DNA of 58,706 nt from an uncultured Christensenella sp. (GTDB taxonomy: Bacteria; Bacillota; Clostridia; Christensenellales; DTU072), in NCBI GenBank assembly GCA_905210905.1, contig CAJLYQ010000002.1, forward strand, positions 1 through 58,706, in the 5' to 3' direction. This document shows, one piece after another, positions 11,729-56,800 of this stretch. The notes under the pieces are model-generated. The model did no database searches. It was not told the DNA's origin and saw only the letters and a program-made list of their open reading frames with translations. The translations under genes and the position numbers were made by a program. Within the stretch, counting starts at the first letter, position 1, and each line of letters begins with the position of its first letter.

Positions 11729-13120
11729 TTAATCGCGATTCAACTCTTCCGGAACGTTCGGCAGATTAGCAAGTCCGCGCGAGATATCTTCGTCGGTAGG
11801 AATATAATCGCTCATCTCACGGTCGTTATACGCTTTGTATGCTTTAAGGTCGAAATACCCTGTGCCGGTCAAACCGAAAAGAATTACTTTCTTCTCGCCG
11901 GTTTCTTTACACTTAAGCGCTTCGTCTATCGTCGCTTTTATTGCGTGAGAACTCTCCGGCGCGGGCAAAATTCCTTCACACCTTGCAAAGCGTTCCGCCG
12001 CTTCGAAGACTTTAGTCTGTTCTACCGAAACGGCTTCCATATATCCGTCGTGATATAGTTTGCTGAGCGTAGGACTCATACCGTGATATCTTAAACCGCC
12101 TGCATGGTTGGGTGACGGCATAAAACCGCTACCGAGAGTGTACATCTTAGCGAGCGGAGTCATTTTGCCGGTATCACAGTAATCGTATCTGTAAGATCCG
12201 CGTGTAAGCGACGGACAACTTGCCGGTTCTACCGCAATAAACCTATAATCTGCCTCACCGCGTAACTTCTCACCCATAAAAGGTGCGATAAGTCCGCCTA
12301 AATTGCTGCCACCCCCGGCGCAACCGATGATTATATCGGGTTTAACGCCGTATTTATCCAATGCAGTTTTGCACTCCAAGCCTATTATGCTTTGGTGAAG
12401 CATTACCTGATCCAATACGCTTCCGAGAACGTATTTGGAATTCGGTACGCTCGTCGCGCACTCTACCGCTTCGCTTATAGCGCAACCCAAACTACCGCCC
12501 GTTCCGGGAAATTCTTTAAGAATTCGTCTACCTACTTCCGTCGTATCGCTCGGACTGGGAATAACGTTTGCTCCGTACGTTCTCATTACTTCGCGCCTGA
12601 ACGGTTTTTGCTCGCTACTTACCTTAACCATAAAAACGTCAAGCGGAATTTTATAAAAAGCACATGCCATCGAAAGAGCCGTACCCCACTGCCCTGCGCC
12701 GGTTTCGGTGGTTAAGTGCGTTATTCCTTGTTGTTTTGCATAGTAAACCTGCGCGACAGCCGAGTTAAGTTTATGCGACCCGGAAGTATTGTTGCCTTCA
12801 AATTTGTAGTATATTTCGGCAGGAGTATCGAGTTCTTTTTCCAACCAATACGCCCTGACGAGCGGCGACGGACGGAACATCGTGTAAAAGTCTCTTATTC
12901 CTTCGGGTATTTCTATAAATTGCGTGCTTTGGTCAAGTTCTTGCTTAACGAGTTCGTCGCAAAAAATGTGTCCTAAGTCCTCTGCCGTAACCTTTTCAAG
13001 CGTGGCGGGATTAAGATAAGGCGCATGTTTAACTTTCATATCCGCACGCAGATTATACCAGTATCTCGGCATCTCGTCTTCTGTCAGGTAAATCTTTGTC
13101 GGAATGCGTTTGTTTTTCAT
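11729..13120 (-). CDS. trpB: TrpB-like PLP enzyme (tryptophan synthase beta, type 2)
   Basis: 463 aa with the PLP-lysine motif GSHKLNSA. The long N-terminus and overall pattern fit the TrpB2 class. No trpA or other trp genes are adjacent. Confidence 0.85.
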   Translation of the reverse strand: MKNKRIPTKIYLTEDEMPRYWYNLRADMKVKHAPYLNPATLEKVTAEDLGHIFCDELVKQELDQSTQFIEIPEGIRDFYTMFRPSPLVRAYWLEKELDTPAEIYYKFEGNNTSGSHKLNSAVAQVYYAKQQGITHLTTETGAGQWGTALSMACAFYKIPLDVFMVKVSSEQKPFRREVMRTYGANVIPSPSDTTEVGRRILKEFPGTGGSLGCAISEAVECATSVPNSKYVLGSVLDQVMLHQSIIGLECKTALDKYGVKPDIIIGCAGGGSNLGGLIAPFMGEKLRGEADYRFIAVEPASCPSLTRGSYRYDYCDTGKMTPLAKMYTLGSGFMPSPNHAGGLRYHGMSPTLSKLYHDGYMEAVSVEQTKVFEAAERFARCEGILPAPESSHAIKATIDEALKCKETGEKKVILFGLTGTGYFDLKAYKAYNDREMSDYIPTDEDISRGLANLPNVPEELNRD

Positions 13121-13410
13121 TTTTTCTGTTCTCCTTCTCTTTTTTATATGAAAAAACGGCGAATCCGCTTTGGGACGAATTCACCGTGTTGCCACCCAAT
13201 TTCATAGTCTAATCGCTTAAACTACCTTAATAACAGTACTACCATACTGTCTTCCTTTAACGCAGGAACTTACGTCGGAAACTACTACAATTTTCGCTCC
13301 CGCCCTCAATAGTCCATTCAACAAATTTCCGCTGTTCCGTCACACCACCCCGAAACTCTCTGAAAACTTCGATATGTCTACTACTCTATCTCAACGGTTT
13401 GTTAAGTTAT
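13121..13410 (-). promoter_or_regulatory. T-box riboswitch leader, Trp specifier (TGG)
   Basis: Read on the minus strand. Stem I has CAGAGAG..GGTGGTGTGA. The specifier loop is GAA-TGG-A (TGG at 13316..13314). The T-box is AAATTGGGTGGCAACACGG (13200..13182). The terminator is CGGTGAAT..ATTCGCCG+TTTTTT (13186..13151). Confidence 0.85.
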
Positions 13411-31440: not shown

Positions 31441-33222
31441 CTATTTCTTAATGATCGCGCCGAACTTACAGTTTTCGATACAAGCGCCGCACTTAATGCA
31501 CTTCTTCGTGTCGATTACGTGTTTTTGTCTTACCGCACCGCTGATCGCTTCTACGGGGCAGTTACGCGCGCACTTCGTACAACCTTTACATGCGTCGGTA
31601 ATCTGGAACGTGATAAGTTTCTTGCATACGCCGGCAGGACATCTCTTCTCTACGATATGCGCTACGTATTCGTCTCTGAAGTATCTGAGCGTGGATAGTA
31701 CCGGGTTGGGCGCGGTTTGTCCGAGTCCGCAGAGCGAGTTGTCTTTGATGTAATAGCAAAGTTTTTCCATATCGTCCAAATCCTGAAGCGTCGCCGTTCC
31801 GTTGGTTATCTTATTCAGATATTCGAGCAATCTCTTGTTACCGATACGGCAAGGCGTACATTTTCCGCAACTTTCGTCTACGGTAAACTCAAGGAAGAAT
31901 TTCGCTATGTCGACCATACAGTTGTCTTCGTCCATAACTATCATACCGCCCGATCCCATCATAGAACCGATGGAGATAAGGTTGTCGTAGTCGATCGGAA
32001 TATCGAAATGTTCGGCAGGAATACAGCCGCCCGAAGGACCGCCGGTTTGCGCCGCCTTGAATTTCTTTCCGTGCGGCACTCCGCCGCCGATATCGTCGAT
32101 AACTTCTCTCAGAGTCGTACCCATAGGAATTTCTACGAGTCCGGTGTTGGTTATTTTACCGCCGAGCGCGAAAACTTTCGTTCCTTTGGATCTTTCCGTA
32201 CCCATCGACGCAAACCAATCGGCGCCTTTAAGAATAATTTGCGCGATGTTTGCGTAAGTTTCTACGTTGTTAAGGATAGACGGTTTTCCGAACAAACCTT
32301 TAACCGCCGGGAACGGAGGTCTGGGTCTCGGCTCACCGCGGTTTCCTTCGATACTCGTCATAAGAGCGGTTTCTTCACCGCATACGAACGCGCCCGCGCC
32401 GAGCCTGATGTCTATATCGAAATCAAATCCCGTACCGAGTATGTTCTTTCCAAGCAATCCGTATTCACGCGCCTGTTTTATCGCTATTTTACATCTTTCA
32501 ACCGCAATCGGGTACTCCGCGCGACAATATATATAACCTTGATGGGATCCGATTGCAAAACCCGCAATAGCCATTGCTTCGAGTACGGCGTGCGGATCGC
32601 CTTCCAAAACCGACCTGTCCATAAACGCTCCGGGGTCGCCTTCGTCCGCGTTACAGCAAACGTATTTCACCGGTCCGGGTTGCATATACGCAAACTGCCA
32701 TTTCTTACCGGTCGGGAATCCCGCGCCTCCTCTTCCTCTGAGTCCGGATTTGGTGATTACGTCGATGACTTCTTGCGGTTTCATTTCCGTAAGAACTTTG
32801 ATAAGTGCCTGATAACCGTCGTGCGCTATGTATTCGTCGATATTTTCAGGGTCGATTACGCCGCAGTTACGGAGCGCAACCCTGGTTTGCTTCTTATAAA
32901 AATTCGTATCCGAGAGCGACTTAACCGCCGCTTCGTTTTTCTCTTGGTGAAGGAGTCTGGTTACTATTCTGCCTTTAATAATATGTTCGCAGACGATTTC
33001 GTCTACGTCTTCCACTCTGACGCCGTGATAAAACGCGCCTTCGGGGTATACGATGATAACGGGACCTACCGCACAAAGACCGAAACAACCTGTTCTGATA
33101 ACCTGTACATCGTTTTCCAGTCCCTTTTCTTTAAGAATTCTGTCAAATTCATCGTGAATTTTTCCGCTGTTGTTGGAAGTACAGCCCGTTCCGCCGCAAA
33201 CTAATATATGGTTTCTGTACAT
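31441..33222 (-). CDS. hydB: NuoF-like flavoprotein subunit of the hydrogenase (HydB/HndC-like)
   Basis: 593 aa with GRGGAGFPTGKKW, ESCGKCTPCR and C-terminal 2x[4Fe-4S] ferredoxin motifs. Confidence 0.92.
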   Translation of the reverse strand: MYRNHILVCGGTGCTSNNSGKIHDEFDRILKEKGLENDVQVIRTGCFGLCAVGPVIIVYPEGAFYHGVRVEDVDEIVCEHIIKGRIVTRLLHQEKNEAAVKSLSDTNFYKKQTRVALRNCGVIDPENIDEYIAHDGYQALIKVLTEMKPQEVIDVITKSGLRGRGGAGFPTGKKWQFAYMQPGPVKYVCCNADEGDPGAFMDRSVLEGDPHAVLEAMAIAGFAIGSHQGYIYCRAEYPIAVERCKIAIKQAREYGLLGKNILGTGFDFDIDIRLGAGAFVCGEETALMTSIEGNRGEPRPRPPFPAVKGLFGKPSILNNVETYANIAQIILKGADWFASMGTERSKGTKVFALGGKITNTGLVEIPMGTTLREVIDDIGGGVPHGKKFKAAQTGGPSGGCIPAEHFDIPIDYDNLISIGSMMGSGGMIVMDEDNCMVDIAKFFLEFTVDESCGKCTPCRIGNKRLLEYLNKITNGTATLQDLDDMEKLCYYIKDNSLCGLGQTAPNPVLSTLRYFRDEYVAHIVEKRCPAGVCKKLITFQITDACKGCTKCARNCPVEAISGAVRQKHVIDTKKCIKCGACIENCKFGAIIKK

Positions 33223-33232
33223 TATTGCCTCC

Positions 33233-33601
33233 TTACTCGTTGGTAATTAAATATTCCGTGCAGATATTGCCGTTTACGATGTGATTGGCAATAATATTTC
33301 TGGCCTTTTCGGGCGTAACGTGAACGTAAGTAACCTTTTCTTTCCCCGGAACGAAAACTTCGATGATCGGTTCCAGTTTACACATTCCCAGACAACCGGC
33401 GCGGCTTACCTTTACGTCGGTAAGTTTTCTTGTCGCTACTTCGTCCACCAACGCGTTGAAAACGGGTCTTGCGCCTGCGGATATACCGCAGGTCGCCATT
33501 CCGACCACTATTCTCGTTTCCTGTGCGTCGGGATTATCTCTCAATATAATCTGAGACTGCATTTTTTCGCGTATTGCTTTTATATCGGCGATACTTTTCA
33601 T
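33233..33601 (-). CDS. thioredoxin-like [2Fe-2S] ferredoxin (HndB-like)
   Basis: 122 aa with MATCGISAG..RAGCLGMCKLEP. Confidence 0.8.
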   Translation of the reverse strand: MKSIADIKAIREKMQSQIILRDNPDAQETRIVVGMATCGISAGARPVFNALVDEVATRKLTDVKVSRAGCLGMCKLEPIIEVFVPGKEKVTYVHVTPEKARNIIANHIVNGNICTEYLITNE

Positions 33602-34146
33602 AGAACTACTCCTCCTAGTATTGTTTGTATGTTTTCTTGTATTGTTTCTTTTACGAACCGCAACACGTACGGTTCGTCAATCGGCGCGTCTTCGAGTTGC
33701 TCCTTTAACTCCCCGGTATCGAACGCAAACTCGTTTCCCTTGTATCGGAAAGAAAATCTCAGTTCGATATCCGTACATGCCGGTAGCAACGCTATAATCG
33801 TTTCTGACAAGTCTCCGAGCGGCGGTCTGTCTATATTTTCGATAACGAACGACGCAAAGACCCTTGTCCCGACGCCTTCGGTCGAGTAGATCGCAAATTC
33901 TCCTCCGCTCATTTCCGCTTCCATCTTGAACAGCGGTATTCCCAGTCCGACGGTCCTGGTATTACGCGTCGTCGTATACGGGTCGGTTACTTTCGCTAAG
34001 AACTCTTTGCTCATTCCGCAACCGTCGTCGGTAATCTCTATCGTCAGCAGTCCTTTGTCCGCTATAACTTTTATTTCTATGTTCTTTGCCCCGGCTTTAA
34101 TCGAGTTATCCGCGATGTCGAGCACGTTCAACGCAAGTTCACGCAT
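33598..34146 (-). CDS. histidine-kinase-like ATPase (HATPase_c only)
   Basis: 182 aa with NVLDIADNSIKAGA, DDGCGM and GLGIPL. Confidence 0.75.
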   Translation of the reverse strand: MRELALNVLDIADNSIKAGAKNIEIKVIADKGLLTIEITDDGCGMSKEFLAKVTDPYTTTRNTRTVGLGIPLFKMEAEMSGGEFAIYSTEGVGTRVFASFVIENIDRPPLGDLSETIIALLPACTDIELRFSFRYKGNEFAFDTGELKEQLEDAPIDEPYVLRFVKETIQENIQTILGGVVL

Positions 34147-34148
34147 AG

Positions 34149-34838
34149 TTATTTCCCCGTCAGGTAATCCAGCAACGCTTTCGCCGAGCAGTCTTCAAGT
34201 TCGATTTCGCTCGAACTTCCTATATCTTCCGCTTTGTGCGCGTCGGAATTAACCAGAACTTTATATTTTTTCGCATAATGACTTACTACGTCACGTTTTG
34301 CCGACAAAGACAACTCAATCGCTTCGTAACCTTCTTCCACCATCCCCAAAACCTGCACCATACCGTTCGCTTCACGATCGATATGAGCCGCAACCGCCAC
34401 ACCGCCGTATTTCTTAACTGCTGACGGTAGGTGCCTTGACGACACCGTTGCGGATACCAAAAGAAGGTTTTCGCGTTTACCGATAACGTTATCGTCCTCG
34501 TCCATAATCAGTTGTTCTCCGAAAATTTCTTCCTTGTTTTTGATTTCGGGGAAAACCAAAGTTTTGTAAAATTTTTCAAGGTTCTCATACGTTTCAAACA
34601 GACATAGCACATGTATGTCTTCGGCAGTTTGAACTTCAATGGCGGGTACGACCGTTACGCCGAACGCATCTCCCGCTTTCATAGCGGTCGGAACGTTGTC
34701 GATTGCGTTATGATCCGATACCGCTATCATGTCTAACCCGTTAAGTTTGGCTTGACCGACTATATTGACGGGCGTCATATCGTTTTCCGCGCATGGGCTC
34801 AACGCGCTGTGGATATGACAGTCATAACGTATTTTCAT
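34149..34838 (-). CDS. PHP-domain phosphoesterase
   Basis: 229 aa with DCHIHSALSPCA and AVSDHN. Confidence 0.75.
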   Translation of the reverse strand: MKIRYDCHIHSALSPCAENDMTPVNIVGQAKLNGLDMIAVSDHNAIDNVPTAMKAGDAFGVTVVPAIEVQTAEDIHVLCLFETYENLEKFYKTLVFPEIKNKEEIFGEQLIMDEDDNVIGKRENLLLVSATVSSRHLPSAVKKYGGVAVAAHIDREANGMVQVLGMVEEGYEAIELSLSAKRDVVSHYAKKYKVLVNSDAHKAEDIGSSSEIELEDCSAKALLDYLTGK

Positions 34839-35161
34839 TTCGACGAATACTTTATTATCGCTTCGTATATGTCAAGATCGGTCCCCAACATATTTACGTT
34901 ATGCTCTTTCGCCTTTTCAAGTAATTGCGGCATAGGCTCGCAACCTTCGCAAAGGACTATTACCCCGACGTCGGCAAGCGTTGCGACCGCGCAAACGTTT
35001 ACGTTCGTCATTACCGTGAACCAAGCGCACGACGACGGCGCCCTGCCCATAACGAAACTGAGAAAATCTCCGGCATAGCCGCCGCTTATTTCTCTGTCGG
35101 GATCGCCTACGTTATATATTGTCGCGTTAAGTGCTTTCGCTACGTCTTGTATCTTATTCAC
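34835..35161 (-). CDS. DRTGG-domain protein
   Basis: 108 aa, paralogous to 36841..37188, in the hydrogenase regulatory context. Confidence 0.6.
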   Translation of the reverse strand: MNKIQDVAKALNATIYNVGDPDREISGGYAGDFLSFVMGRAPSSCAWFTVMTNVNVCAVATLADVGVIVLCEGCEPMPQLLEKAKEHNVNMLGTDLDIYEAIIKYSSK

Positions 35162-36389
35162 AATAATCCTTAAAAGTACATTTCGATTCGGGCGGTATAA
35201 CGCCGTTTACCAAATCTTCGGCAAATGCGCGACACGAAGGCGCTCCGCACATTCCGCAGTCGCGATGCGGTAACTCGTTAAAGATTTTTTCTATCTCCAA
35301 CATTTTCTTCATCGCAGTTACTCTATCCGTAGATAACGAATATACGTCTTTTAATTCCGGTACTCGTTCCCACATATAGAATTCCAACCCTTGCCCCTCG
35401 TCGGCAAGTTCGTTATATTTAATAGGCAGTTTTTTTCGTAACTGTCTTATTCTCGCTTTCGCTACGAAGGGGTTTTCGACGTTCATTACTCCGCCGACGC
35501 AACCTCCGACGCATGCGTTAAGTTCGATAAATTCCACGTTGCCGAGTTGCCCGTCTTCAAGCGCGTTAAGCACTTTTATGACGTTTTCTATCCCGTCGGC
35601 AGCAAGATATTTTTCTCGAGAACAATTTCCGGATTCTCCTCCGCTTGACGCCCACGAAATGCCTTGCGCGCTTAGTCTTGTCATAGGTTTCGGCTCTACG
35701 TTTTTCATTATAGGTACTAACTGCATATACACTTCACTTGCGGACAATACCCCGTCCACGTACGGACTGTCTACGCCGATTCCCTGTTTAAGCGCAAAAA
35801 CCTTTGCAGGACACGGAGATATAAAAAACACGCCCATGTCCTCTCTTTTTATTCCTTTGTCAAACGCCCTCTTTATCGCAAGTTTTGCCGCAACGTCAAC
35901 CGGTGCGAGCAATTCTAATAAATGCGACTTCAAATCGTGAAACCGTACTAAAATCAAATCCAGTATTGCCGGACACGCGGTACTGATTACCGGTTTTTTT
36001 AACGCGCCTCTGTCAAAAAGTATTTTAGTAAGTTCCGAGCAAAGATTTGCACCTTTGCCTACTTCGTATACGTCGTCAAACCCCATTTCCAACAATCCGT
36101 TAAGCACGTAGTCGATGTTTGTGAGATTATCGAACTGTCCGTAAAACGACGGCGCGGGCAACGCGATTTTATATTTGTAATTTTTTATCACTTCGAGCGA
36201 GTCATACGACGGCAACTTCGCTTGATGCGGACAAAGTCTTACGCACTCGCCGCAACCGATACAGCGTTCGTACATTACGCTGGCTTTACCGTTCCTAACG
36301 CGAATCGCTTCCGTAGGACAACGTTTCATGCAGGTGACACAACCCTTGCATTTGTTCGGATCAAGAATAACGGTATTGTGTTTCGGCAC
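35154..36389 (-). CDS. HydS-like putative sensory [FeFe]-hydrogenase
   Basis: 411 aa with N-terminal 2x[4Fe-4S]. H-cluster-like motifs are STACPA (Ala at the proton-relay Cys position), SPCPAK and ELNACVGGCVGG. The C-terminus carries the CGMCGAPSC Fe-S motif. Confidence 0.8.
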   Translation of the reverse strand: MPKHNTVILDPNKCKGCVTCMKRCPTEAIRVRNGKASVMYERCIGCGECVRLCPHQAKLPSYDSLEVIKNYKYKIALPAPSFYGQFDNLTNIDYVLNGLLEMGFDDVYEVGKGANLCSELTKILFDRGALKKPVISTACPAILDLILVRFHDLKSHLLELLAPVDVAAKLAIKRAFDKGIKREDMGVFFISPCPAKVFALKQGIGVDSPYVDGVLSASEVYMQLVPIMKNVEPKPMTRLSAQGISWASSGGESGNCSREKYLAADGIENVIKVLNALEDGQLGNVEFIELNACVGGCVGGVMNVENPFVAKARIRQLRKKLPIKYNELADEGQGLEFYMWERVPELKDVYSLSTDRVTAMKKMLEIEKIFNELPHRDCGMCGAPSCRAFAEDLVNGVIPPESKCTFKDYCE

Positions 36390-36411
36390 TTTCAGTTCCT
36401 CCCTCGTCGTC

Positions 36412-36837
36412 TTAACCGAAATTAACTCTCAGATATACTTTTGTCCCTTTTCCTACTTCGCTCTCGATTTTGAATTCGTCCGTATATTTTTTAATATTCG
36501 GCAAACCCATACCTGCGCCGAACCCCAACCCTCTTATGTCGTCGCTTGCGGTTGACCAACCGGGTTTCATTGCAAGTTCTATATTCTCAATTCCTTTTCC
36601 GTGGTCTTCAAGGAAAACTTCGATTCTGTCCGTATAAATTTCCGCGCGCGCTTTACCTCCGCACGCGTGTATAACCATATTGATTTCCGCTTCGTACATG
36701 GCAATCGCGATACGTCTGACGTCGTGATTCGAAACGCCTAAATTTTTAAGCGTATCCTTTACGTGATTAGTTGCCGCCCCGGCAGAAGTAAAATTATTGC
36801 CTGCGACGTCAAATTCCAAGCAAAGAGCGCCCAGCAT
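36412..36837 (-). CDS. anti-sigma/serine-kinase-like HATPase protein
   Basis: 141 aa with AMYEAEINMVIH, DHGKGI and GFGAGMGLPNI. Confidence 0.75.
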   Translation of the reverse strand: MLGALCLEFDVAGNNFTSAGAATNHVKDTLKNLGVSNHDVRRIAIAMYEAEINMVIHACGGKARAEIYTDRIEVFLEDHGKGIENIELAMKPGWSTASDDIRGLGFGAGMGLPNIKKYTDEFKIESEVGKGTKVYLRVNFG

Positions 36838-36840
36838 TTA

Positions 36841-37188
36841 TCAGCCCTCCGATTTCAGTCCCGCCTCATAAAGCATTCCGCACGCGGCAAACATCCTAAG
36901 CGGCGAGGACAATATCGCTATTCTTTTTTCTTCTGCAAGTTGTAACATAACGGAATCCGGCTCTTTTCCTCGCACGAGAACCACGCATACCATATCCATC
37001 ATTACGGCCGTACGTATAACCTGCGGATTACATAATCCCGTAATAAGTACCGCTTGGTCTTTCACAAATGCCAAAACGTCGCTCATCATGTCCGACGCGC
37101 AAGCGGAATTAACTTCGGTATTCATCATCGCGTCGTCCGCAAACAACACGTTGGCATTCAAAACTTTGACTATGTCTTTTATCTTCAC
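36841..37188 (-). CDS. DRTGG-domain protein
   Basis: 115 aa, with context and paralogy to 34835..35161. Confidence 0.6.
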   Translation of the reverse strand: MKIKDIVKVLNANVLFADDAMMNTEVNSACASDMMSDVLAFVKDQAVLITGLCNPQVIRTAVMMDMVCVVLVRGKEPDSVMLQLAEEKRIAILSSPLRMFAACGMLYEAGLKSEG

Positions 37189-37221
37189 GCTTGTTCTCCC
37201 TAAAATTATAACCGCAAAAAA

Positions 37222-37719
37222 TTATTGATATTTAGCGATAATGGCAGGGATATCGTCGGGAACGATTTTGCCGTAAACGTCGCCGTTGACCGTCATAACG
37301 GGAGCCAATCCGCAACAACCTATACAACGTGTCGCGCAAAGCGAGTATCTCCCGTCCGCGCTGGTCGCGCCGTCGACAAGTCCGAGTTCTCTTTCGAGTC
37401 TGGACATTATGTCGCCCGAACCTTTTACGTAGCACGCCGTACCCAAACAAACCGCCATAGCGTATTTTCCTTTCGGATTAAGCGAGAACTGAGCATAAAA
37501 AGTGGATACTCCGAAAACTTCTTCAAGCGATAATCCGAGTTCTTCGGCTACCATTTTTTGAACTTCTATCGGTAAGTATCCATAGATTGCTTGTGCTTCT
37601 TGTAAAGCAGGCATTAGCGCGCCGCCCATATCTTTCATCGAAACCAGACGAGAACGCAGTTCTTTTTCTTGTTCCGCAGTTCCCGCGAAAGGAACGTCGC
37701 TGATGTTAATTCTTCCCAT
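37222..37719 (-). CDS. hydC: NuoE-like [2Fe-2S] subunit of the hydrogenase (HydC/HndA-like)
   Basis: CLGTACYVKG..CIGCCGLAP. The ATG at 37719 follows a GGAGG RBS. The ORF-track extension to 37800 runs into the promoter. Confidence 0.88.
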   Translation of the reverse strand: MGRINISDVPFAGTAEQEKELRSRLVSMKDMGGALMPALQEAQAIYGYLPIEVQKMVAEELGLSLEEVFGVSTFYAQFSLNPKGKYAMAVCLGTACYVKGSGDIMSRLERELGLVDGATSADGRYSLCATRCIGCCGLAPVMTVNGDVYGKIVPDDIPAIIAKYQ

Positions 37720-37771
37720 TATGTACCTCCGGTGATAAAATCCGTAATGATATATAGTTATATCAAAAGAT

Positions 37772-37800
37772 ATGTTACCATAACAAACACGCTTTGGCAA
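37772..37800 (-). promoter_or_regulatory. candidate promoter of the hydrogenase operon
   Basis: TTGCCA (37800..37795), a 17-nt spacer, then TAACAT (37777..37772) with an upstream TGg. Confidence 0.5.
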
Positions 37801-37914
37801 TATCTTTTTCTAAAAAAAATCGTTTTGTCGAATGGCGTCGAAAAAAAATACGCGGTATTTCGTTTTGCGGATAAAATAACCGTAAAAAAAGAATTATATT
37901 TTCCTTATAATTCG

Positions 37915-37943
37915 TTGACAACGATTTTTTGTAATGTTATGCT
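37915..37943 (+). promoter_or_regulatory. sigma-A-type promoter of the second T-box leader
   Basis: TTGACA (37915-37920), a 17-nt spacer, then TATGCT (37938-37943). Confidence 0.6.
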
Positions 37944-37949
37944 TGAAAA

Positions 37950-38216
37950 GTCGAACAACAAAAGGCTTTGACGAAGACGGTCGAAAAAAATGCTTCCAGA
38001 GAGTCCGCGGTCGGTGCGAGCGGATAAGCGGATTTTCACAAACCTATCACTTCCGAGCCGAAACCAAGAAAGCGCGAAGCGCAAGTAGACGGTTTCCGTG
38101 AATGCACGTCACAGCATAGGGCTTGATTGAGCCGTAGAGAGGCGCACTTCGTTGCGCAATTTGAGTGGTACCGCGGGCTGAACCCGTCTCAAAGTTTATT
38201 TTGAGGCGGTTTTTTT
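37950..38216 (+). promoter_or_regulatory. T-box riboswitch leader (best-guess specifier ATC, Ile)
   Basis: Stem I has CCAGAGAG (37996-38003) and the distal loop GGTCGGTGCGA. There is a K-turn-like GGC-TTT-GA / GA-GCC. The candidate specifier is ATC-A (38046-38049) just before the CTTC/GAAG helix. The T-box is TTGAGTGGTACCGCGGG (38161-38177). The terminator is CCGTCTCAAA/TTTGAGGCGG plus T7 (38184-38216). Confidence 0.8.
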
Positions 38217-38246
38217 ATCGACAAAAACCGTCGGGAGGATTAAATA

Positions 38247-40529
38247 ATGATAGAAAACGAACTTCGCGAAGTCGGCGCGCGCATCAAAGCGTTACGCGAA
38301 ATCAGCGGTTTGACCGAAGAACAGGCGGCGGAAAAAACCGAAGTTTCTCTTGCCGAATACCGAGAACTCGAATCGGGCAAAAAAGACTTCCCGTTTACGT
38401 TTATTTATAAGGCGGCAGACACTTTCGGCGTAGAAATGAAAGACCTTCTTTCGGGTAGCAGCCCTATCCTTTCGCTGTACACCGTAGTCCGCGGCGGCAA
38501 AGGTCTTCCCATTACGAGAAGAACGGGTTTCACTTACGAAAACCTCGCCCCGTCTTTCAAAAACAAACTTGCCGAGCCGTTTTGGGTAAACATCCCCTAC
38601 TCCGACGAAAAACCCGTTTTTACCAAACATAACGGACAGGAAATCGACATCGTCGTGAGCGGCAGACTGGAAATTCAAATCCACGACAGCAAAGAGATAC
38701 TTAACCCCGGCGACACGATTTATTACAACAGTTCGTTTCCGCACGCGCTCCGCGCGCTCGACGGCAAAGACTGCACCCTGTACGCTATCGTTATTAAATC
38801 CGATAAGGACGAAAACATCGACATAAAAGAATTCCCGTGCGAACCGGCAAAAAGCGACGCACGCAAAAAAATGCGCTCGGTCGCGGACGAGTTTATCGAA
38901 ACGACCGTCGATAAAAACGGCGTTTTACAGTCAATAAAGTTCAAAAACGAAGAAAACTTTAACTTTGCTTTCGATATCGTGGACAAACTAGCCACCAAAT
39001 CTCCGAACAAGACGGCTATGCTCTGGGTCAGCGCCGACCACAAATCGCACGCTTTCACTTTTGCCGATATGAAACGCTATTCGAATATGACGGCAAACTA
39101 CTTCGCTTCGCTCGGCATAAAACGCGGCGATTGCGTTATGCTCGTGCTGAAAAGACATTATCAGTTCTGGTTTTCCATTCTCGCTCTGCATAAAATCGGT
39201 GCGGTGGTTATTCCTGCAACCAACCAACTCGTCGAACACGACTTCACTTATCGCTACGAAAAAGCGAAAGTCAAAGCAATCGTTTGCACTTCGGACGGCG
39301 ACACCGCCGTTCACGCGGAGAACGCCTGCAAAGAATTCCCCGATATGATTAAAGTTATCGTCGGATCGAAACGCGAGGGCTGGCACGATTTCAATACCGA
39401 AATGCTTCTCGCCGACGACGTATACGAAAGAAAAGCCGATTCTCCTTGCGGCAGCGACAATATGCTTATGCTGTTCACTTCGGGTACGTCCGGTTATCCA
39501 AGAATCGCCGCACATTCCTATAAGTATCCGCTCGGACACTACGTTACCGCAAAATACTGGCACAACGTTAACCCGAACGGACTGCACTTTACCATTTCCG
39601 ACACCGGTTGGGGCAAAGCGTTATGGGGCAAACTTTACGGACAATGGCTTTGCGAAGCCCCGATTTTTACGTACGACTTCGACAAGTTCAAATCGGACGA
39701 TATCCTTCCGATGTTTGCTAAATACGGCATAACGACGTTCTGCGCTCCCCCCACTATGTATCGTTTCTTTATTAAGGAAGACCTTTCGAAATACGATTTA
39801 AGTTCTATAGAATACGCTACCACCGCAGGCGAAGCGTTAAACCCGGAAGTATTCAATCAGTTCTACAAAGCGACCGGACTTAAAATAATGGAAGGGTTCG
39901 GACAAACGGAAACCACCCTTTCGGTAGCGAACCTCGTCGGATCGACGCCAAAAATCGGCTCGATGGGCAAACCCAGTCCCCTTTACGACGTACATTTACT
40001 CGATGCGGACGGAAACGAATGTAAAAACGGCGAAGTCGGCGAAATATGTATAAAAACGAAAGATAAAATTCCTTGCGGATTGTTCACCGGATACTATCTC
40101 GACGAAGAAAAAACAGCCGAAGTATGGCACGACGGTTTTTACCATACCGGCGATCAGGCGACGCGCGACGAAGAAGGCTACCTTTGGTATGTAGGCAGAA
40201 TCGACGACGTAATCAAGAGCAGCGGATATCGCATCGGACCGTTCGAAATCGAAAGCGTCATTATGGAACTTCCGTATGTTCTCGAATGTGCGATCACCCC
40301 CGTTCCCGACCCCATCCGCGGACAAATCGTAAAAGCAACGATAGTTCTTACCAAAGGAACGGTCGGCACGGAAGAACTCAAAAAAGAAATTCAGCATTAC
40401 GTAAAAACCAATACCGCGCCTTATAAATATCCGCGTATCGTGGAATTCAGAGACGAACTTCCCAAAACGATCAGCGGCAAAATCCGCAGAGTACAGTTGC
40501 GCGAAGAATCGAACTCAAAAAACGAGTAA
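38247..40529 (+). CDS. XRE-HTH + cupin + AMP-forming acyl-CoA synthetase fusion protein
   Basis: 760 aa. The N-terminal ~190 aa are HTH plus cupin, paralogous to 26058..26630. The remainder is an AMP-binding enzyme with LFTSGTSGYPR, TGD, and a GKIRR-type C-terminus. A GGGAGG RBS precedes it. Confidence 0.88.
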   Translation: MIENELREVGARIKALREISGLTEEQAAEKTEVSLAEYRELESGKKDFPFTFIYKAADTFGVEMKDLLSGSSPILSLYTVVRGGKGLPITRRTGFTYENLAPSFKNKLAEPFWVNIPYSDEKPVFTKHNGQEIDIVVSGRLEIQIHDSKEILNPGDTIYYNSSFPHALRALDGKDCTLYAIVIKSDKDENIDIKEFPCEPAKSDARKKMRSVADEFIETTVDKNGVLQSIKFKNEENFNFAFDIVDKLATKSPNKTAMLWVSADHKSHAFTFADMKRYSNMTANYFASLGIKRGDCVMLVLKRHYQFWFSILALHKIGAVVIPATNQLVEHDFTYRYEKAKVKAIVCTSDGDTAVHAENACKEFPDMIKVIVGSKREGWHDFNTEMLLADDVYERKADSPCGSDNMLMLFTSGTSGYPRIAAHSYKYPLGHYVTAKYWHNVNPNGLHFTISDTGWGKALWGKLYGQWLCEAPIFTYDFDKFKSDDILPMFAKYGITTFCAPPTMYRFFIKEDLSKYDLSSIEYATTAGEALNPEVFNQFYKATGLKIMEGFGQTETTLSVANLVGSTPKIGSMGKPSPLYDVHLLDADGNECKNGEVGEICIKTKDKIPCGLFTGYYLDEEKTAEVWHDGFYHTGDQATRDEEGYLWYVGRIDDVIKSSGYRIGPFEIESVIMELPYVLECAITPVPDPIRGQIVKATIVLTKGTVGTEELKKEIQHYVKTNTAPYKYPRIVEFRDELPKTISGKIRRVQLREESNSKNE

Positions 40530-40557: not shown

Positions 40558-40587
40558 AAAAGCCGCATCGAAAAATGCGGCTTTTTG
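40558..40587. terminator. bidirectional terminator between convergent genes
   Basis: agccgcat-cgaaaa-atgcggct hairpin flanked by A-runs and T-runs. Confidence 0.7.
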
Positions 40588-43568: not shown

Positions 43569-45071
43569 TTACGGTAAATCTATCTCTCCGACGTGCGTTA
43601 GACATATCGTTACCGTTCTTTTATAGCCGTCTTCCGTTTTTACCTTTTCCGAAACGATGACTTTATCGATCAGCAGTCTGACGATTTCGGGCGTTAGTTT
43701 CTTGATTCTGCCCGTTTTGACCACAAGAGAAACGAAATTATTGATGTTATCATTTATCTCGTCGTATCGGTCGATTTCGCTTTGACTGTTTTCAACCGTT
43801 TCTTTCAGTTGCCGTTGCTCCTGCTCATATGCCTCGGACATCAAAGCAAACCGTTCTTCCGTTATCTTGCCCATAACCTTATCTTCATAAAGGCTTTGAA
43901 TGATCTTGTTCAGAGCCTTTATTCTGTTTTCGGCTTCGGATACTTGTCTTGCCTTCTTCGCAACTTCCTTTCTTGACAGCAATCGGGAGTGTTGGATGGC
44001 AATATCGACAAAGTCTCCTTCATGATCGATGACAAAGTCGGAAACTCTTTTTAAGTAACTCAGAACGATTTCTTCAATGGCTTCTACGGTTATCTGATGC
44101 GAAGTGCAGGTCGATTTCTTCTGCTTGCGGTAGGACGAGCAGTTAAAATATTCCTTTTGCTTCATAGTAGATGAGCGGCAGAGATACATTTTCTTTCCGC
44201 AGTCCGCACAGTAAACCATTCCCGAAAACACGTTCATCTCGCCCATCGGCGTCGGTCTTCGTCTGCCTTCGCGTATTTTCTGTACGGTATCATACGTCTG
44301 TTTGTCGATGATCGCTTCCTGCGTATTCTCGAAGGTAACCCATTTAGACGGATCGTTCCATACCTTCTTCTTACACTTATAGGACTTCTTTGTCGTCCGG
44401 AAGTTTACGGTACAGCCCGTATAGTGCGGATTGCTCAGGATTCGTTTTATCGTATCCGAGCACCATAATTCAGGCATGGGTGATGTTGCCGGGTGCTTAA
44501 TGCCGAGTCTGTCGTAATGGCAGATTGGCGTTTCAACTTTTCTTTCGTTGAGAATCCGTGCAATATGCGTCGGACCGAACCCCTGCATACAGAGAGCGAA
44601 AATCTCTTTTACCGTTTTTGCCGCTTCTTCATCGATGATCCATTGTTCCTTGTCGTCGGGGCTTTTCAGATAACCGAAAGGCGGAACAGTACACAGGTGT
44701 TTTCCCGAATTGCCTTTGGAACGGAATACCGCGCGGATCTTCTTGCTTGTGTCCTTTGCGTACCACTCGTTGATGATGTTACGGAATGGGGTAAAATCGT
44801 TGTCTACCTGACTTTCACTGTCCACGCCGTCATTGACCGCGATAAATCTTACGCCCGCTTCGGGAAAGGTTATCTCGGTATACACGCCGACTTTCAGATA
44901 ATCCCTGCCGAGCCTCGACATATCCTTGACAATAATTGTACCGACCTCGCCGGCGTCGACTTTACGCATTAAACGCTGAAAGTCGGGGCGATTGAAGTTC
45001 GTACCCGAATATCCGTCGTCCACAAACGTTTCAAGATTGCGGAAACCGTGTTCTTTTGCATATTTGCTCAA
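43569..45071 (-). CDS. large serine recombinase, N-terminally short or degenerate (TTG start, no catalytic-Ser segment in the callable ORF)
   Basis: 500 aa with [15 protein letters not shown], the Zn ribbon CADCGKKMYLCRS, a coiled coil and a DUF4368-like C-terminus. See the finding on its N-terminus. Confidence 0.8.
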   Translation of the reverse strand: MSKYAKEHGFRNLETFVDDGYSGTNFNRPDFQRLMRKVDAGEVGTIIVKDMSRLGRDYLKVGVYTEITFPEAGVRFIAVNDGVDSESQVDNDFTPFRNIINEWYAKDTSKKIRAVFRSKGNSGKHLCTVPPFGYLKSPDDKEQWIIDEEAAKTVKEIFALCMQGFGPTHIARILNERKVETPICHYDRLGIKHPATSPMPELWCSDTIKRILSNPHYTGCTVNFRTTKKSYKCKKKVWNDPSKWVTFENTQEAIIDKQTYDTVQKIREGRRRPTPMGEMNVFSGMVYCADCGKKMYLCRSSTMKQKEYFNCSSYRKQKKSTCTSHQITVEAIEEIVLSYLKRVSDFVIDHEGDFVDIAIQHSRLLSRKEVAKKARQVSEAENRIKALNKIIQSLYEDKVMGKITEERFALMSEAYEQEQRQLKETVENSQSEIDRYDEINDNINNFVSLVVKTGRIKKLTPEIVRLLIDKVIVSEKVKTEDGYKRTVTICLTHVGEIDLP

Positions 45072-45156
45072 TATTTCTTTTTGATGTACGATGCTGTTGC
45101 TGTCACCTTCCTGTTCGTCGTCGGATGAGTGTACGAGGGGGATATTGGCGTAATCC

Positions 45157-47030
<1,874 letters not shown>

Positions 47031-51823: not shown

Positions 51824-52744
51824 TTAAAGTATTCTCTTTTTCGTTTGTTTCAGCGGTTTCTGGACGATTTTTCCGTTCTCGCCGTAAAAGATATGCCATC
51901 CTAAAAAATTGATACCGTTTTTCACTGCGCAAATCTGGGTCTTTCTATTGGGATAAATTTTGTCGCGGACGATCATTTCTTTGATCTTTTCCAAATACTT
52001 GGCGCACTTTTCTTTCTCTTCTCCGCAAAGAAGTATCATATCGTCCATATACCGAAGATAATGCTTTACGCGCAATCTCTCTTTGATGAATCTGTCCACG
52101 TCGCTTAAATACAACAGCGCAAAACATTGGCTCGTCTGATTTCCCATCGGCAAGCCTTTATCCTCTTCTTTATTATAACTGTCGATTATATCGTACAGCA
52201 AACCAAGAACATCATCCCTTTTTACTATTCTTTTCAGTTTTTCTTTCAAAACCGTATGATCGATGCTCGCAAAATACTTTTTCACGTCGATCTGGATAAA
52301 ATATCCGTTTTTTCCGTAATTTTTATAATGTTCCGTCATAAAGCGGCGAAGTCTCTTGATTGCAAAATGCGAGCCTTTATTCTTTCTACAAGCGGCGTTA
52401 TCGTAAATAAGATGACGATCGAGGAGCGGCGTCAGAAAGTTGTCGCAAAAAGTGTGCTGTACGATCCGATCGCGATAATGTATCGCCTGTATCTCCCGTT
52501 CTTTCGAATCATAGATCATAAAAGTGTGATACCCGCCGACCCGGTATTTTCCGTATTTGAGGTCGTAATGAGTCGCCCAAAGATTCTCGGACAGATTCAT
52601 TTCGAACTCTATCACTTCCTTTTTGTGTCTTTTACTTAGTCGCGCCCTTCGGTGCGCTTTATACAAACCGGTAAAACCGATCATAGTATCCCATTCATTC
52701 ATAATGCCAATAAATAAAGTCGTCGGAAAGTGTCCAAAGCGCAT
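51824..52744 (-). CDS. DGR-type reverse transcriptase (ORF ends at an internal TAA)
   Basis: LPMGNQTSQCFALLYL fits the DGR [I/L/M]GxxxSQ signature, the catalytic motif is YMDD, and the N-terminus reads LYKAHRRARLSKRHKKEV. The start is uncertain (Met at 52744, 52702 or 52684). Confidence 0.88.
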   Translation of the reverse strand: MRFGHFPTTLFIGIMNEWDTMIGFTGLYKAHRRARLSKRHKKEVIEFEMNLSENLWATHYDLKYGKYRVGGYHTFMIYDSKEREIQAIHYRDRIVQHTFCDNFLTPLLDRHLIYDNAACRKNKGSHFAIKRLRRFMTEHYKNYGKNGYFIQIDVKKYFASIDHTVLKEKLKRIVKRDDVLGLLYDIIDSYNKEEDKGLPMGNQTSQCFALLYLSDVDRFIKERLRVKHYLRYMDDMILLCGEEKEKCAKYLEKIKEMIVRDKIYPNRKTQICAVKNGINFLGWHIFYGENGKIVQKPLKQTKKRIL

Positions 52745-53835: not shown

Positions 53836-56800
53836 TCACAGCTTTATACGCAAAGCGGGCACGACCCCATAACTAGGGCTGCTCACGCCGTTGCTGCTAT
53901 CAGCGTAGCCATTGTACTTGACGTCGCGCGCGAGACTACTATAATAACAGCCCGGCGAGCGGAGCCACCACCAACCGTTGCCATAATCGTCTGTAGACGT
54001 ATTCATATATGCGCCGGTAGCTCTGCTGTAATCGCTTGTTTGCATACATCTTGCCGTATCATAATTGCTGTAATCGGCATTAAATCCATACGCGCTGTTC
54101 GTTACTTCCTGCTCGCTGAGCAAGAACACCCTGTCCTGTGTATTCGAGCAAGCGTAACTATTGTTTCCGCTGGTAAATGCCGTTGCGTTGTTGTTCGGGT
54201 TCGTGCTTCTCGCGCTGTTATCTACGGTTGTCAGTTGAATAATTTCCTTTTGCAAATCGTTAAACGCCGTGTTGTAGAACGTGTCGTTCAACCAAGCGCG
54301 GATTTCACTGTTTGCATAGTTATTGCTATTTGAAGCATATCTATGATTTGCGATTATGCTTTCGCATAGGATAAACAACTCTCCGTTCGTTTCCGAAAGA
54401 ATACGCCATTTAATGGGTTCCACCTTAAAGTAGTATACCGTCCCGCTCGTCACGCTTGCTCCGGTAGAGAACATATAACCACTTTGAAACGGTCTTGCCG
54501 AAACTATGGCGTAGTAATATCCGTCGGAACCGAGATAATAACCTTTTTCGTTCGTGGTGTTCGTAATGGTCACGTTATTGGCTTTTATGGTTTGCGGATA
54601 TTCTCCGAAGTAAATATAATTTCCTTCACGCGAATTAGTATTAGTAGTAGACGTAGTTTCGCTCCACTTGGCGTACAGTACGACGTTATCCCCCGTGTAC
54701 GTTATTTCCGTCACTTCGTTATCAAACGTACTTTCCGTATACCAACCGAGGAAGGTATACTCAGTTATTTCTTTCGTTATACGATAATTGCCGTTTCCGA
54801 GATATTCGCTACTGATCGTCGTTTCCGAAGTCACTTTCGCAGGATCGTTCAACGCGATCCCGCCTTCCGCACTCACGATGGTAAAGGTCGAAGGATTGTT
54901 CCCGTTGGTGCCGCCGTTCAGATTGTAGGTCACGGTATAGGTGATGATCGTCGTCTTCGCCGTCAATTGATAGATGCCGGAATCTTTATCCCATGCAAAG
55001 AGGCTATCGCCGTTACTGTCTGTAATAAGAGTATTGTTGTATTGCCATCCGACGAAAGTATAGCCTTCGAACATATTACAAAATGAATAATTATCTCCTT
55101 TATATACCCTTTGCGTGCCTATATATAAACCGTTAAAATACAGTTCAAGTATAGATTGATCGGTATCAAGAACGACCAACGTATATTCTTGGCAGAAATC
55201 ATTGCCGACTCTGTCGGTTGTGGTAATTCTGTAAGTAATGGTTTCGTTTACTTCAAGAGAACCCGAAAGCGTTTCAACGTTAAACAACAATTCTTTATCG
55301 AAACTGTCAAGAACTTTAAAAAGCGCGTAAGGACTATCACCGTTCTGGATATAGTCATAATCTCTCGAATAGACGAGCGTCGGCATATCGTAAATCTTAA
55401 TGCCCGTAATCAATTCGCTCTGTGTGGTATTCCCGAGAGCGTCGGTCGCAACGATATAAAGATTGATCGTGTTTCCGCCCGCAAGGGTATATCCACTTGC
55501 CGCTACGATAGACGTTTCGCAAGTCTCACCGAAACCGTTTACGGCTTGGGCATTGAATTCTTCGCCGACAGACAATTTTCTGATGTTGTTTGCCGTAGTT
55601 GTGTACGTCAACGTGATATCATCACTGGAATACACTTTAACGTTTTGCGAAATCACTTCGTAGTAATTGCCGAGATGATCCGTCGTAGAAAGTTTGAAGG
55701 TTACGACGTTGCCGCCCGCCGCAATCGTACCGCTATTCAGAACAACGCTTACGCTCAAATTATCGTTGAAACTGTCTTTCGCCGTAGCGTTCAACAATGC
55801 ACTGTTTACGGTATCGGTTACTTTCATCGAAGTTTTTTCGGTATCAAACGTGATCGTCGGCGTTCCGTAAATCTTGATGCCCGATATTTCTTTCGTGTTT
55901 ACGTTGCCGAGATGGTCGGTTGCAGTCACAAGATAAGTAAGCGTTGCACCGGAAATCTGCGAGCCTGAAATCAATTCCAAAGTCACGTTGGATAAAGTCT
56001 TTGCAAAACTGTCTTTTGCAACTATACCGAGAGTTTCAAGCGTTATTTCATCTTCAACCTTAAAGTTGGTCGTCGAAGCACCGCTGATAGAGGGCAATCC
56101 ATAAACCTTTACAGAATACGTAACGTAATTCGTATTGCCTTTGCTGTCGGTCGTAGAACTCTTGATAGTGATTGTGTTGCCGCCGGAGAACGTTCCGCTG
56201 TATTGAATGGTGGTAACGTCAAGCTGGGCGCCGAAACTATCTACTGCGGAAACGCCGAATAATGCATTGCCGATAGTATCCGACGCTTTTATATCCACAA
56301 CGTCGATATTCCGTGTAATAACGGGTGTACCGTAAACTTTCACGTTCGGTATTTCAACTTCGGTCTCATTACCCGTTTTATCGGTCGTGGAAATAACGAC
56401 GGTAACGATATCACCGCCATTATATGTACCTTCTTTTACCGAAACGTTGACAGCCACGGCATCACCGAGAGTATCAATCGCGCTTGCGCCGAAAAGCGAA
56501 GCGTTGATCGTATCGGACATATTGAAATAGTCTTTTTCGGTGTTGTATGTAAGCGTAGGCGCGCCGTAAACGTTGATATTCGATATCGTTTCAACAGCAT
56601 AGATATCGTAAAGTCCCATAGCGACCAATCTTACGGTTATCTTGCCGCCAACGACTTTTGAACCGCCTGTAATTTGTGCCGTTACTTCAACAGGATTTCC
56701 GTCGGTATCCACTGCGGTCGCACTGAACGTTTCGGCGACTATTGCATCGTTAATACTGATTTCCGTCCTCTTATTGCAAGTTAAAGAAACATCATAATCA

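Follow-up and report, generated by a model that had tools for sequence, protein, structure and literature searches.

Since the 1960s it has been known that isobutyrate, 2-methylbutyrate and isovalerate are required or used by many anaerobes as sources of valine, isoleucine and leucine. To our knowledge, the activating enzymes and the regulation of this route have not been tied to genes in Clostridia. Rumen anaerobes carboxylate 2-methylbutyrate to isoleucine and isobutyrate to valine, according to labelling studies as they are cited in PMC7356843 (Robinson & Allison 1969; Allison & Peel 1971). The route by a reversed 2-ketoisovalerate:ferredoxin oxidoreductase (VOR) was described as 'not proven yet' for Prevotella as of 2020 (PMC7709123). 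The specifier codons of T-box leaders have been used to predict the specificity of the transporters and standard biosynthesis genes located downstream of them (Wels et al. 2008; PMC2494555). Here we analyse a window of 58,706 nt (the whole stretch of DNA studied, contig CAJLYQ010000002.1 of assembly GCA_905210905.1, an uncultured Christensenella sp.), in which a T-box leader predicted to sense tRNA-Ile precedes a gene for an acyl-CoA ligase.

Two described enzymes are close to this ligase. MbcS of Staphylococcus aureus is selective for 2-methylbutyrate and isobutyrate, is poor with isovalerate and supplies primers for branched-chain fatty acids (BCFA) (PMC10026030). MacsMa of Methanosarcina acetivorans has 2-methylbutyrate as its preferred substrate, and the change of a pocket Trp to Gly and the presence of an alternative Trp have been described for it (PMC10455477).

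Results

T-box leader and specifier codon

The Rfam scan for the leader was restricted to positions 37850–38300, and a scan of the whole window was run separately at the gathering score. The restricted scan gave a full-length match to RF00230 (T-box, model positions 1–219) at 37959–38194 on the + strand, with 93.0 bits and an E value of 3.5e-21. This equals the RF00230 gathering score of 93 exactly. The leader was not listed in the whole-window gathering scan, which did list another T-box at 13168–13403 (−). The match is borderline for automatic annotation, yet far beyond chance, and the region 37959–38216 (+) is a complete transcription-attenuating T-box leader with Stem I, Stem II, Stem IIA/B, Stem III and the antiterminator/terminator, as judged from the RF00230 match and covariation in 69 homologous leaders.

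All elements of the leader lie on the + strand. Stem I (37964–38059) is closed by a GGC/GCC base helix and was delimited by sequence, covariance-model (CM) alignment and an explicit-structure test. It has a K-turn at its base (UUUGAC, 37967–37972, opposite CGA, 38054–38056), followed by a GAAG/CUUC helix (37973–37976 / 38050–38053), an AG bulge (AGAGAG, 37998–38003) and the distal loop GGUCGGUGCGA (38009–38019); the bulge and the loop were read from the sequence. Stem II (38060–38065 / 38091–38096) and the Stem IIA/B region together occupy 38060–38109, and the Stem III hairpin is placed at 38142–38157 by CM alignment. The T-box sequence itself, AAUUUGAGUGGUACCGCG, is found at 38158–38175. Together with the antiterminator it covers 38158–38194 and forms a canonical bulged helix (−10.5 kcal/mol) with the 7-nt bulge UGGUACC. 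The UGGU of this bulge (38166–38169) would pair with the tRNA 3' end ACCA, i.e. with a tRNA carrying A73. An intrinsic terminator follows at 38184–38216, with its stem at 38184–38209 and a U7 tract at 38210–38216 (−14.2 kcal/mol, z −5.2; none of 200 shuffles matched its stability). The 3' arm of the antiterminator is the 5' arm of the terminator (shared positions 38184–38193), so that the two folds are mutually exclusive, the terminator being the more stable. The minimum free energy of the whole leader as a single sequence is uninformative (z −1.25), which is to be expected because a switch has alternative folds.

By CM alignment, AUC followed by A is placed at the specifier position (38046–38049; codon 38046–38048). 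In the same alignment the AGUA S-turn is deleted, and the specifier loop has only 2 nt on its 5' side. The S-turn (AGUA / GAA) is absent from the specifier loop of the window leader and of all 69 aligned leaders. An S-turn is common in the specifier loops of T-boxes; it is neither universal nor definitional. The leader belongs to a reduced-specifier-loop subtype of bona fide T-boxes.

The orthologous leaders of the primary hits were aligned with MAFFT, and the column aligned to the AUC of the window was tabulated. It holds ATC in 59 leaders, GTA in nine and GTC in one. The base before ATC is T or C and the base after it is A (39 leaders), C (19) or G (1); the triplet alone is fixed. When the second leaders of the loci are added, the set amounts to 62 complete Ile leaders and 26 Val leaders (GTA/GTC). 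An RNAalifold consensus on the alignment of 69 homologous leaders (A2) contains 36 pairs, and 25 of these show compensatory changes. The consensus includes the distal Stem I hairpin, Stems II and IIA/B (columns 128–133/171–176 and 177–180/187–190, with many compensatory changes), Stem III (columns 266–270/300–304, compensatory changes in all pairs) and the antiterminator. The columns of the AG bulge and the distal loop are almost invariant in A2, and the distal hairpin covaries.

The helices that flank the specifier were not called by RNAalifold on A2, and the three helices that surround the K-turn and the specifier loop in Stem I were tested with an explicit structure instead. In this structure 92.7% of the cells pair, as compared to 46–56% after a shift of the 3' strand by a single column, and 0 of 500 shuffles reach 92.7%. 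The GAAG/CUUC helix directly 3' of the codon and its following base is 100% paired, with compensatory change at four of its four pairs (GAGG/CCUC, GGAG/CUCC, GGGG/CCCC). The flanking helix being fully paired and covarying, the specifier triplet is structurally anchored, and the change from Ile to Val is a change of exactly these three columns. Sequence comparison thus confirms the specifier as AUC, an Ile codon, and the T-box is predicted to be specific for tRNA-Ile.

The UGGU is invariant in all ligase leaders. The T-box at 13168–13403 (−), which is the stronger match of the window (119.5 bits), has the specifier UGG (Trp) and the bulge UGGC, and it stands before a gene for a TrpB-like pyridoxal phosphate enzyme (11729–13120, −; NF009057, 678 bits). 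It is an ordinary member of the Trp regulon. Its UGGC is what the G73 of tRNA-Trp would lead one to expect, and the discriminator rule was thereby controlled within the window itself.

A first-pass annotation, made from the letters of this DNA, had described a leader with all T-box hallmarks, a probable Ile specifier ATC-A at 38046–38049, a UGGU suited to A73 and an atypical specifier loop lacking GAA, and had proposed a CM scan and a covariation test on orthologous leaders. The Rfam scan bears out the hallmarks, with a full-length match and the functional elements present. CM alignment arrives at the same placement of the specifier, the ATC is invariant in 59–62 orthologous leaders and the adjacent helix covaries; the proposed test gives ATC versus GTA/GTC at the same column in an anchored register. 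The A73 assignment agrees with the invariant UGGU of the ligase leaders and with the contrasting UGGC of the Trp T-box. The loop was rightly called atypical, given the deleted AGUA and the 2-nt 5' side.

The subfamily of reduced-loop leaders lies at or below the Rfam gathering threshold: two of six such leaders were reported in the scanned loci L030, L063, L064, L070 and L073. Automated annotation probably under-calls leaders of this kind.

Ligase protein

The gene behind the leader (38247–40529, +) encodes a 760-aa fusion of a helix-turn-helix (HTH) domain, a cupin and an acyl-CoA synthetase. A promoter-like site (TTGACA, 17 nt spacer, TATGCT with extended TG; 37915–37943, +) matches the consensus at 10 of 12 positions, a match to consensus only, and the ribosome-binding site GGGAGGA (38233–38239, +), read from the sequence, lies 7 nt 5' of the ATG. 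The Pfam domains, all on the + strand, are HTH_3/HTH_19 (XRE-type HTH; residues 10–70, nt 38274–38456), Cupin_2 (114–181, nt 38586–38789), AMP-binding (248–617, nt 38988–40097) and AMP-binding_C (667–745, nt 40245–40481). The ligase gene is the sole gene of its transcription unit. The next gene is a convergent class-I lysS (lysyl-tRNA synthetase), and a hairpin terminator at 40558–40585 (−) between the two is shared. The earlier description of the only downstream gene as an acyl-CoA synthetase fused to an HTH-cupin module agrees with this monocistronic unit and these domains.

The best NCBIfam match of the ligase domain is MbcS (NF047394), with 437.9 bits against an equivalog cut-off of 850; the protein is not a member. 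By this comparison the window protein ranks as a short branched-chain ANL ligase related to MbcS and is not an MbcS orthologue. The closest solved structure is that of MacsMa (PDB 3ETC), matched with 667 bits over residues 204–757. In the alignment to MacsMa, the pocket Trp of Acs (Trp414 of AcsSe) is replaced by Gly552 (FGQTET, 551–556), and the alternative Trp, Trp259 of MacsMa, is present as Trp438 (AKYW, 435–438). Both Trp438 and Gly552 are invariant in the family protein alignment (A1). The ANL catalytic motifs seen in the alignment are intact and do not vary: TSGT(S/T)GYP, YHTGD, GRxDDVIKSSGYRIGPFEIE and PKTISGKI. By analogy with these enzymes, 2-methylbutyrate is most likely the substrate of the ligase.

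Orthologous loci and the Ile/Val split

A protein scan that took a single genome for each GTDB species detected at least 599 loci with relatives of the ligase, and the best 80 were analysed. All 80 comparison loci come from metagenome-assembled genomes (MAGs) and were chosen as the best matches to the window protein. The fusion protein is common in MAGs of Oscillospiraceae, Ruminococcaceae, Acutalibacteraceae and Christensenellales. The closest locus among the 80 is from a MAG of an 'uncultured Christensenella sp.' (CAYQKV01; locus L001), with a protein 90% identical and the same neighbours. Of the 80 loci, 70 have the T-box core AGUGGUACCGCG no more than 450 nt upstream of the fusion gene, always with UGGU. 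Of the other ten loci, three are truncated and seven are full-length without a T-box.

A scan of whole loci showed that about 20 of them have a tandem pair of fusion genes, and that each gene of the pair has a separate leader. The leader of the upstream gene has ATC and that of the downstream gene GTA, the exceptions to plain GTA being GTC once, GTA-A once and an odd GCA once. The last case, the second leader of L051 (core at 6536), reads GCA-T and not GTA-G; an Ala codon, a sequencing error or a change of register are all possible. In 77 of 79 cases a ligase and its nearest neighbour belong to the same specifier class. In a neighbour-joining (distance) tree of the ligases, the Val-type ligases are contiguous, with L030 as the exception. 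The tandem ligases of L030 (1317–3623 and 3983–6271) share 99.6% identity over the ligase domain and have Gly456 in both copies, and their leaders carry ATC and GTA, respectively. These near-identical copies look like recent gene conversion or an assembly artefact.

Residue 456 in the motif S-D-T-G-W-[G/A]-K is the only column of the ligase domain that separates the enzymes of the two classes completely: Gly in 56/56 Ile-type and Ala in 22/23 Val-type ligases, L030 being the exception. In the window the Gly456 codon (motif S-D-T-G-W-G-K) is at 39612–39614 (+), as identified by the column comparison of Ile- and Val-leader ligases. Leu459 is changed to Met together with Ala456 in most Val-type ligases, and MacsMa has Gly at the position of residue 456. 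By motif homology, residue 456 would be equivalent to Val310 of Salmonella enterica Acs (D-V-G-W-V-T-G-H). In the 2006 work of Ingram-Smith et al., Val310 was reportedly one of four acetate-pocket residues. A bulkier Ala456 for a substrate one carbon shorter makes chemical sense. The T-box-less full-length orthologues of L022, L025, L027, L029, L035 and L003 all have Gly456.

A ligase triad for Ile, Val and Leu was considered and rejected. The candidate 'third ligase', whose gene neighbours LeuA-like genes and Leu T-boxes, has an identity of only about 25% in the ligase domain, and an AP_endonuc_2 TIM barrel replaces its HTH-cupin part, so that it belongs to a different ANL family. A pattern scan of metagenomes for Leu-specifier leaders of the same Stem I type found one HTH-cupin ligase among about 68 T-box-confirmed matches. 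This is L183 (metagenome contig, leader at about 234–520, minus strand), where a Val-type-like ligase, 71% identical to that of L061 and with the motif GWAKSMW, follows a CTC (Leu) leader. The metagenome pattern scan gives no evidence for a Leu/isovalerate clade of the ligase.

The AP_endonuc_2 protein is an observation in its own right. It is a fusion of about 840 aa, made of a xylose-isomerase-like TIM barrel (AP_endonuc_2) and an AMP-binding ligase, located behind Leu T-boxes or a Leu-T-box-controlled LeuA-like gene (L105, L179, L197; also L004, L024, L045, L074, L075, L014, L036, L041 and L066). It is often followed by an Amidohydro_2 protein and is another ANL enzyme in a T-box regulon of branched-chain amino acids (BCAA). 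Leaders with a CTC-C specifier occur in L081, L085 and some 40 further metagenome loci, in front of a threonine-dehydratase-like protein of 438 aa (PALP by Pfam; ACT-like C-terminus by eye). A Leu-type codon on an enzyme of the Ile pathway is an odd pairing, and the register is possibly misread.

A 10-nt inverted repeat, AATTTGAATA ... TATTCAAATT, brackets the whole leader in L004, L007, L009, L011, L015, L016 and L052 (matched by 0–3% of shuffles). An operator recognised by the fused HTH and a long-range RNA helix are both conceivable roles for it. An operator or long-range pairing around the leader was rejected as a general feature, the repeat being confined to one subclade and absent from the window.

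Operon partners

Neighbouring open reading frames (ORFs) were clustered across the loci, and the counts refer to the 66 loci whose sequence reaches far enough beyond the last ligase. A gene for a CbiA/ParA-like P-loop protein of about 220 aa directly follows the last ligase in 23 of the 66. Subunits of a 2-oxoacid:ferredoxin oxidoreductase (OFOR) are encoded downstream of the last ligase in 22 of the 66: a delta subunit of about 68 aa with 2x[4Fe-4S], alpha (POR_N + PFOR_II), beta (TPP-binding) and gamma (POR). In all four loci inspected the order is P-loop gene, delta-ferredoxin ORF, alpha subunit. With 552.9 bits, the alpha subunit passes the cut-off of 399 for NCBIfam VorB (3-methyl-2-oxobutanoate dehydrogenase).

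The P-loop protein (weak CbiA/ParA match, no NCBIfam match) is always located between the ligase and vorD, e.g. in L039 (6274–7137) and L069 (6252–6900), and may be a maturation or Fe-S delivery factor for VOR. In L001, the closest relative, the ligase is also monocistronic and has no vor partner. A weak OFOR-alpha match in the window at 12065–12541 falls in the TrpB-like gene and was discarded as spurious.

Other features of the window

Divergent from the ligase, a cluster at 31441–37800 (−) contains NuoF-like, HATPase, PHP, [FeFe]-hydrogenase-like, anti-sigma-like HATPase, DRTGG and NuoE-like genes. It resembles the regulatory or electron-bifurcating hydrogenase clusters of Clostridia and is a possible source of reduced ferredoxin for a VOR synthase. 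Downstream of lysS and a GNAT gene, two large serine recombinases (DUF4368), an ORF with a reverse transcriptase domain (RVT_1) and a 1580-aa ORF are found at 43569–46842, 51824–52744 and 53836–58578. This part of the window is probably an integrated mobile-element region.

Discussion

We consider it likely that a T-box responding to tRNA-Ile attenuates the gene of a Macs/MbcS-like ligase, which would make the CoA ester of 2-methylbutyrate for conversion by VOR and on to isoleucine, and that a paralogue under a Val T-box does likewise with isobutyrate. The foundation of this model is comparative: alignment of leaders, proteins and operons supports the T-box architecture, the identity and register of the specifier, the pairing of leader and gene, the Ile/Val split and the linkage to a VOR operon in relatives. 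According to the model, the anticodon of uncharged tRNA-Ile(GAU) would pair with AUC in the Stem I specifier loop, and the free ACCA 3' end of the tRNA would pair with UGGU in the antiterminator bulge. This would stabilise the weaker antiterminator over the stronger terminator, and RNA polymerase would read into the ligase gene. The ligase would turn 2-methylbutyrate, abundant in gut and rumen, into 2-methylbutyryl-CoA. VOR, working as a synthase with reduced ferredoxin and CO2, would convert this into 2-keto-3-methylvalerate, and transamination would yield isoleucine. By the same route, isobutyrate would give valine through the sister paralogue under the tRNA-Val T-box. The HTH-cupin module may autoregulate transcription or sense a metabolite. 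Four points are inferred from sequence: the tRNA-dependent read-through, which acid the ligase uses, that VOR runs reductively, and what the HTH-cupin module does. The predicted path from branched acid over acyl-CoA and reductive carboxylation to BCAA is strongly supported by comparative genomics, not by biochemistry. A VOR route would explain why induction of the ligase is wired to tRNA charging.

The idea that the switch serves such a salvage pathway was already part of the first-pass annotation, which had also suggested a search for vor or ior genes. In orthologous loci this search is positive: in 22 of them the operon of the ligase also encodes an OFOR whose alpha subunit is of the VorB type. 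The pathway idea further gains from the Val-specifier paralogues and from the preference of the closest enzymes for 2-methylbutyrate or isobutyrate. The proposal is supported by way of these relatives; in the window itself no vor or other OFOR gene was found within the 58.7 kb.

Several other explanations have to be considered. One concerns the RNA: the specifier might be mis-read, neighbouring frames giving CUA (Leu), UAU (Tyr) or UCA (Ser), or the switch might be decaying and constitutive. The specifier loop is indeed atypical, without an S-turn and with 2 nt on the 5' side, the codon is followed by C in 19 leaders rather than by the usual purine, and an Rfam score exactly at the threshold would suit a mis-reading as well as a relic. 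Against mis-reading, ATC alone is invariant and its flanks vary (T/C before, A/C/G after); the paralogue group alters exactly these three columns, to GTA or GTC, both of which are Val codons; and the register is fixed by covariation. The functional elements are almost invariant in 69 leaders of diverse species, which points to selection and not to decay. We regard the mis-read specifier as already largely refuted, and this explanation as a whole as very improbable.

The other two explanations accept the leader and ask what the protein is for. If the T-box and its Ile specifier are real, an MbcS-like ligase might prime anteiso BCFA when isoleucine is scarce. MbcS is the best-scoring curated family and BCFA priming is its documented role (PMC10026030), the window ligase is monocistronic with no VOR nearby, and low charging of tRNA-Ile would report a shortage of primer as well. 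This salvage of lipid primers nevertheless seems unlikely to us. The ligase shares an operon with a VorB-type oxidoreductase in 22 related loci, which links the acyl-CoA to a 2-keto acid and not to FabH; separate Ile and Val T-boxes on separate paralogues suit amino-acid supply better than membrane homeostasis; and T-box regulons are otherwise devoted to aminoacyl-tRNA supply (PMC2494555). Alternatively, the protein could be primarily a regulator, a BirA-like enzyme-repressor whose ANL domain makes or binds an acyl-adenylate or acyl-CoA co-effector, the T-box tuning the level of the regulator. The XRE-type HTH and the cupin are conserved family-wide, with many invariant residues in 1–200, the 10-nt inverted repeat around the leader in one subclade could be an operator, and the seven T-box-less loci must have some other control. 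On the other side, every catalytic ANL motif that the alignment shows is intact and without variation, the ligase domain resembles a kinetically competent enzyme (MacsMa, 667 bits), the operon partners are metabolic enzymes, and an operator is neither conserved family-wide nor found in the window, so that we find a primarily regulatory role quite unlikely. Both the lipid-primer and the regulator explanation are less likely than amino-acid salvage, yet compatible with it.

A number of observations weigh against the salvage model. Neither vor genes nor a Val-type paralogue nor tRNA genes occur in the 58.7-kb window; without vor in the window, the pathway link in this genome rests on orthology. 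The MbcS score of 438 against 850 bits means that family membership gives no licence for a substrate assignment. The T-box core was not found upstream of the fusion gene in seven full-length loci (five of Ruminococcus type, L003 and the second ligase of L070). In L030 and L183 the codon of the leader and the type of the ligase disagree, so specifier and enzyme can be uncoupled. The Val types are contiguous, so that the correlation between Gly/Ala456 and the specifier may reflect only one or two evolutionary events. Finally, MacsMa is reported to have an 'alternate' acyl pocket, as the title of Shah et al. 2009 puts it, and contact of residue 456 with the substrate is for this reason uncertain.

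A broader proposal, to which we give even weight for and against, extends the salvage model beyond this genome. Gut and rumen Clostridia (Oscillospirales and Christensenellales) might share a widespread tRNA-sensing regulon for the salvage of branched-chain fatty acids. In it, the Ile type would go with 2-methylbutyrate and Gly456 and the Val type with isobutyrate and Ala456, a dedicated VOR synthase would complete the path, and the HTH-cupin module would provide a second, metabolite-sensing control. These would be the genes behind the need for branched-chain volatile fatty acids (VFA).

The T-box specifier serves here as a built-in functional label that would assign two paralogous ligases and a VOR operon to Ile and Val supply in at least dozens of uncultured gut and rumen species, and the distribution may be much wider, with at least 599 species-level loci holding relatives of the ligase. 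The T-box regulon would extend beyond synthetases, de novo pathways and transporters to a salvage route that fixes carbon. The model also makes a specific prediction on structure and function, with Gly set against Ala at residue 456. For annotation, the reduced-specifier-loop subfamily at or under the Rfam threshold marks a gap, its members being likely missed by automated procedures. If the model is true, it supplies the missing genes behind a sixty-year-old need of fibre-degrading anaerobes for branched-chain VFA, with practical bearing on branched-chain VFA supplementation in ruminant nutrition and on the fluxes of BCAA and branched short-chain fatty acids in the human gut.

Comparison with known systems

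The link between T-box, acyl-CoA ligase and VOR has no earlier description in the searchable full-text literature; the T-box survey literature is partly covered by it, and priority of others is possible. The T-box RNA and its logic are known. What appears to be new is the regulon member, the pathway that it implies and the split of Ile and Val specifiers over paralogous ligases.

The window leader shares with the canonical T-boxes of Firmicutes (RF00230; leaders of ileS, ilv-leu, tyrS and glyQS) the modular anatomy, the UGGN bulge and the competition between antiterminator and terminator. The logic is also the same, uncharged tRNA inducing a gene that restores the supply of an amino acid. It differs in its reduced loop and in its target, which is an acyl-CoA ligase and no aminoacyl-tRNA synthetase, de novo biosynthesis gene or transporter. 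With Wels et al. 2008 we share the reasoning that the codon in the specifier tells which amino acid the regulated protein serves; acyl-CoA ligases and oxidoreductases are not mentioned there (PMC2494555). The reductive carboxylation of the rumen (the labelling studies cited above; Allison et al. 1966) has the same predicted chemistry, formation of an acyl-CoA followed by a ferredoxin-dependent 2-oxoacid synthase. In contrast to our locus, it was followed by labelling in Bacteroides/Prevotella, Megasphaera and mixed cultures, and its activating enzymes and regulation were not assigned to genes.

Among the enzymes, MacsMa is the closest structure and likewise has Gly in place of the Acs pocket Trp and keeps the alternative Trp. 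It is archaeal, has neither the HTH-cupin extension nor a T-box, and its physiological role is unsettled. MbcS is the best curated family, and the two acids it prefers are those to which the Ile and Val specifiers point. It lacks a regulatory N-terminal domain and feeds fatty-acid primers, whereas the context of the window ligase points to amino-acid synthesis.

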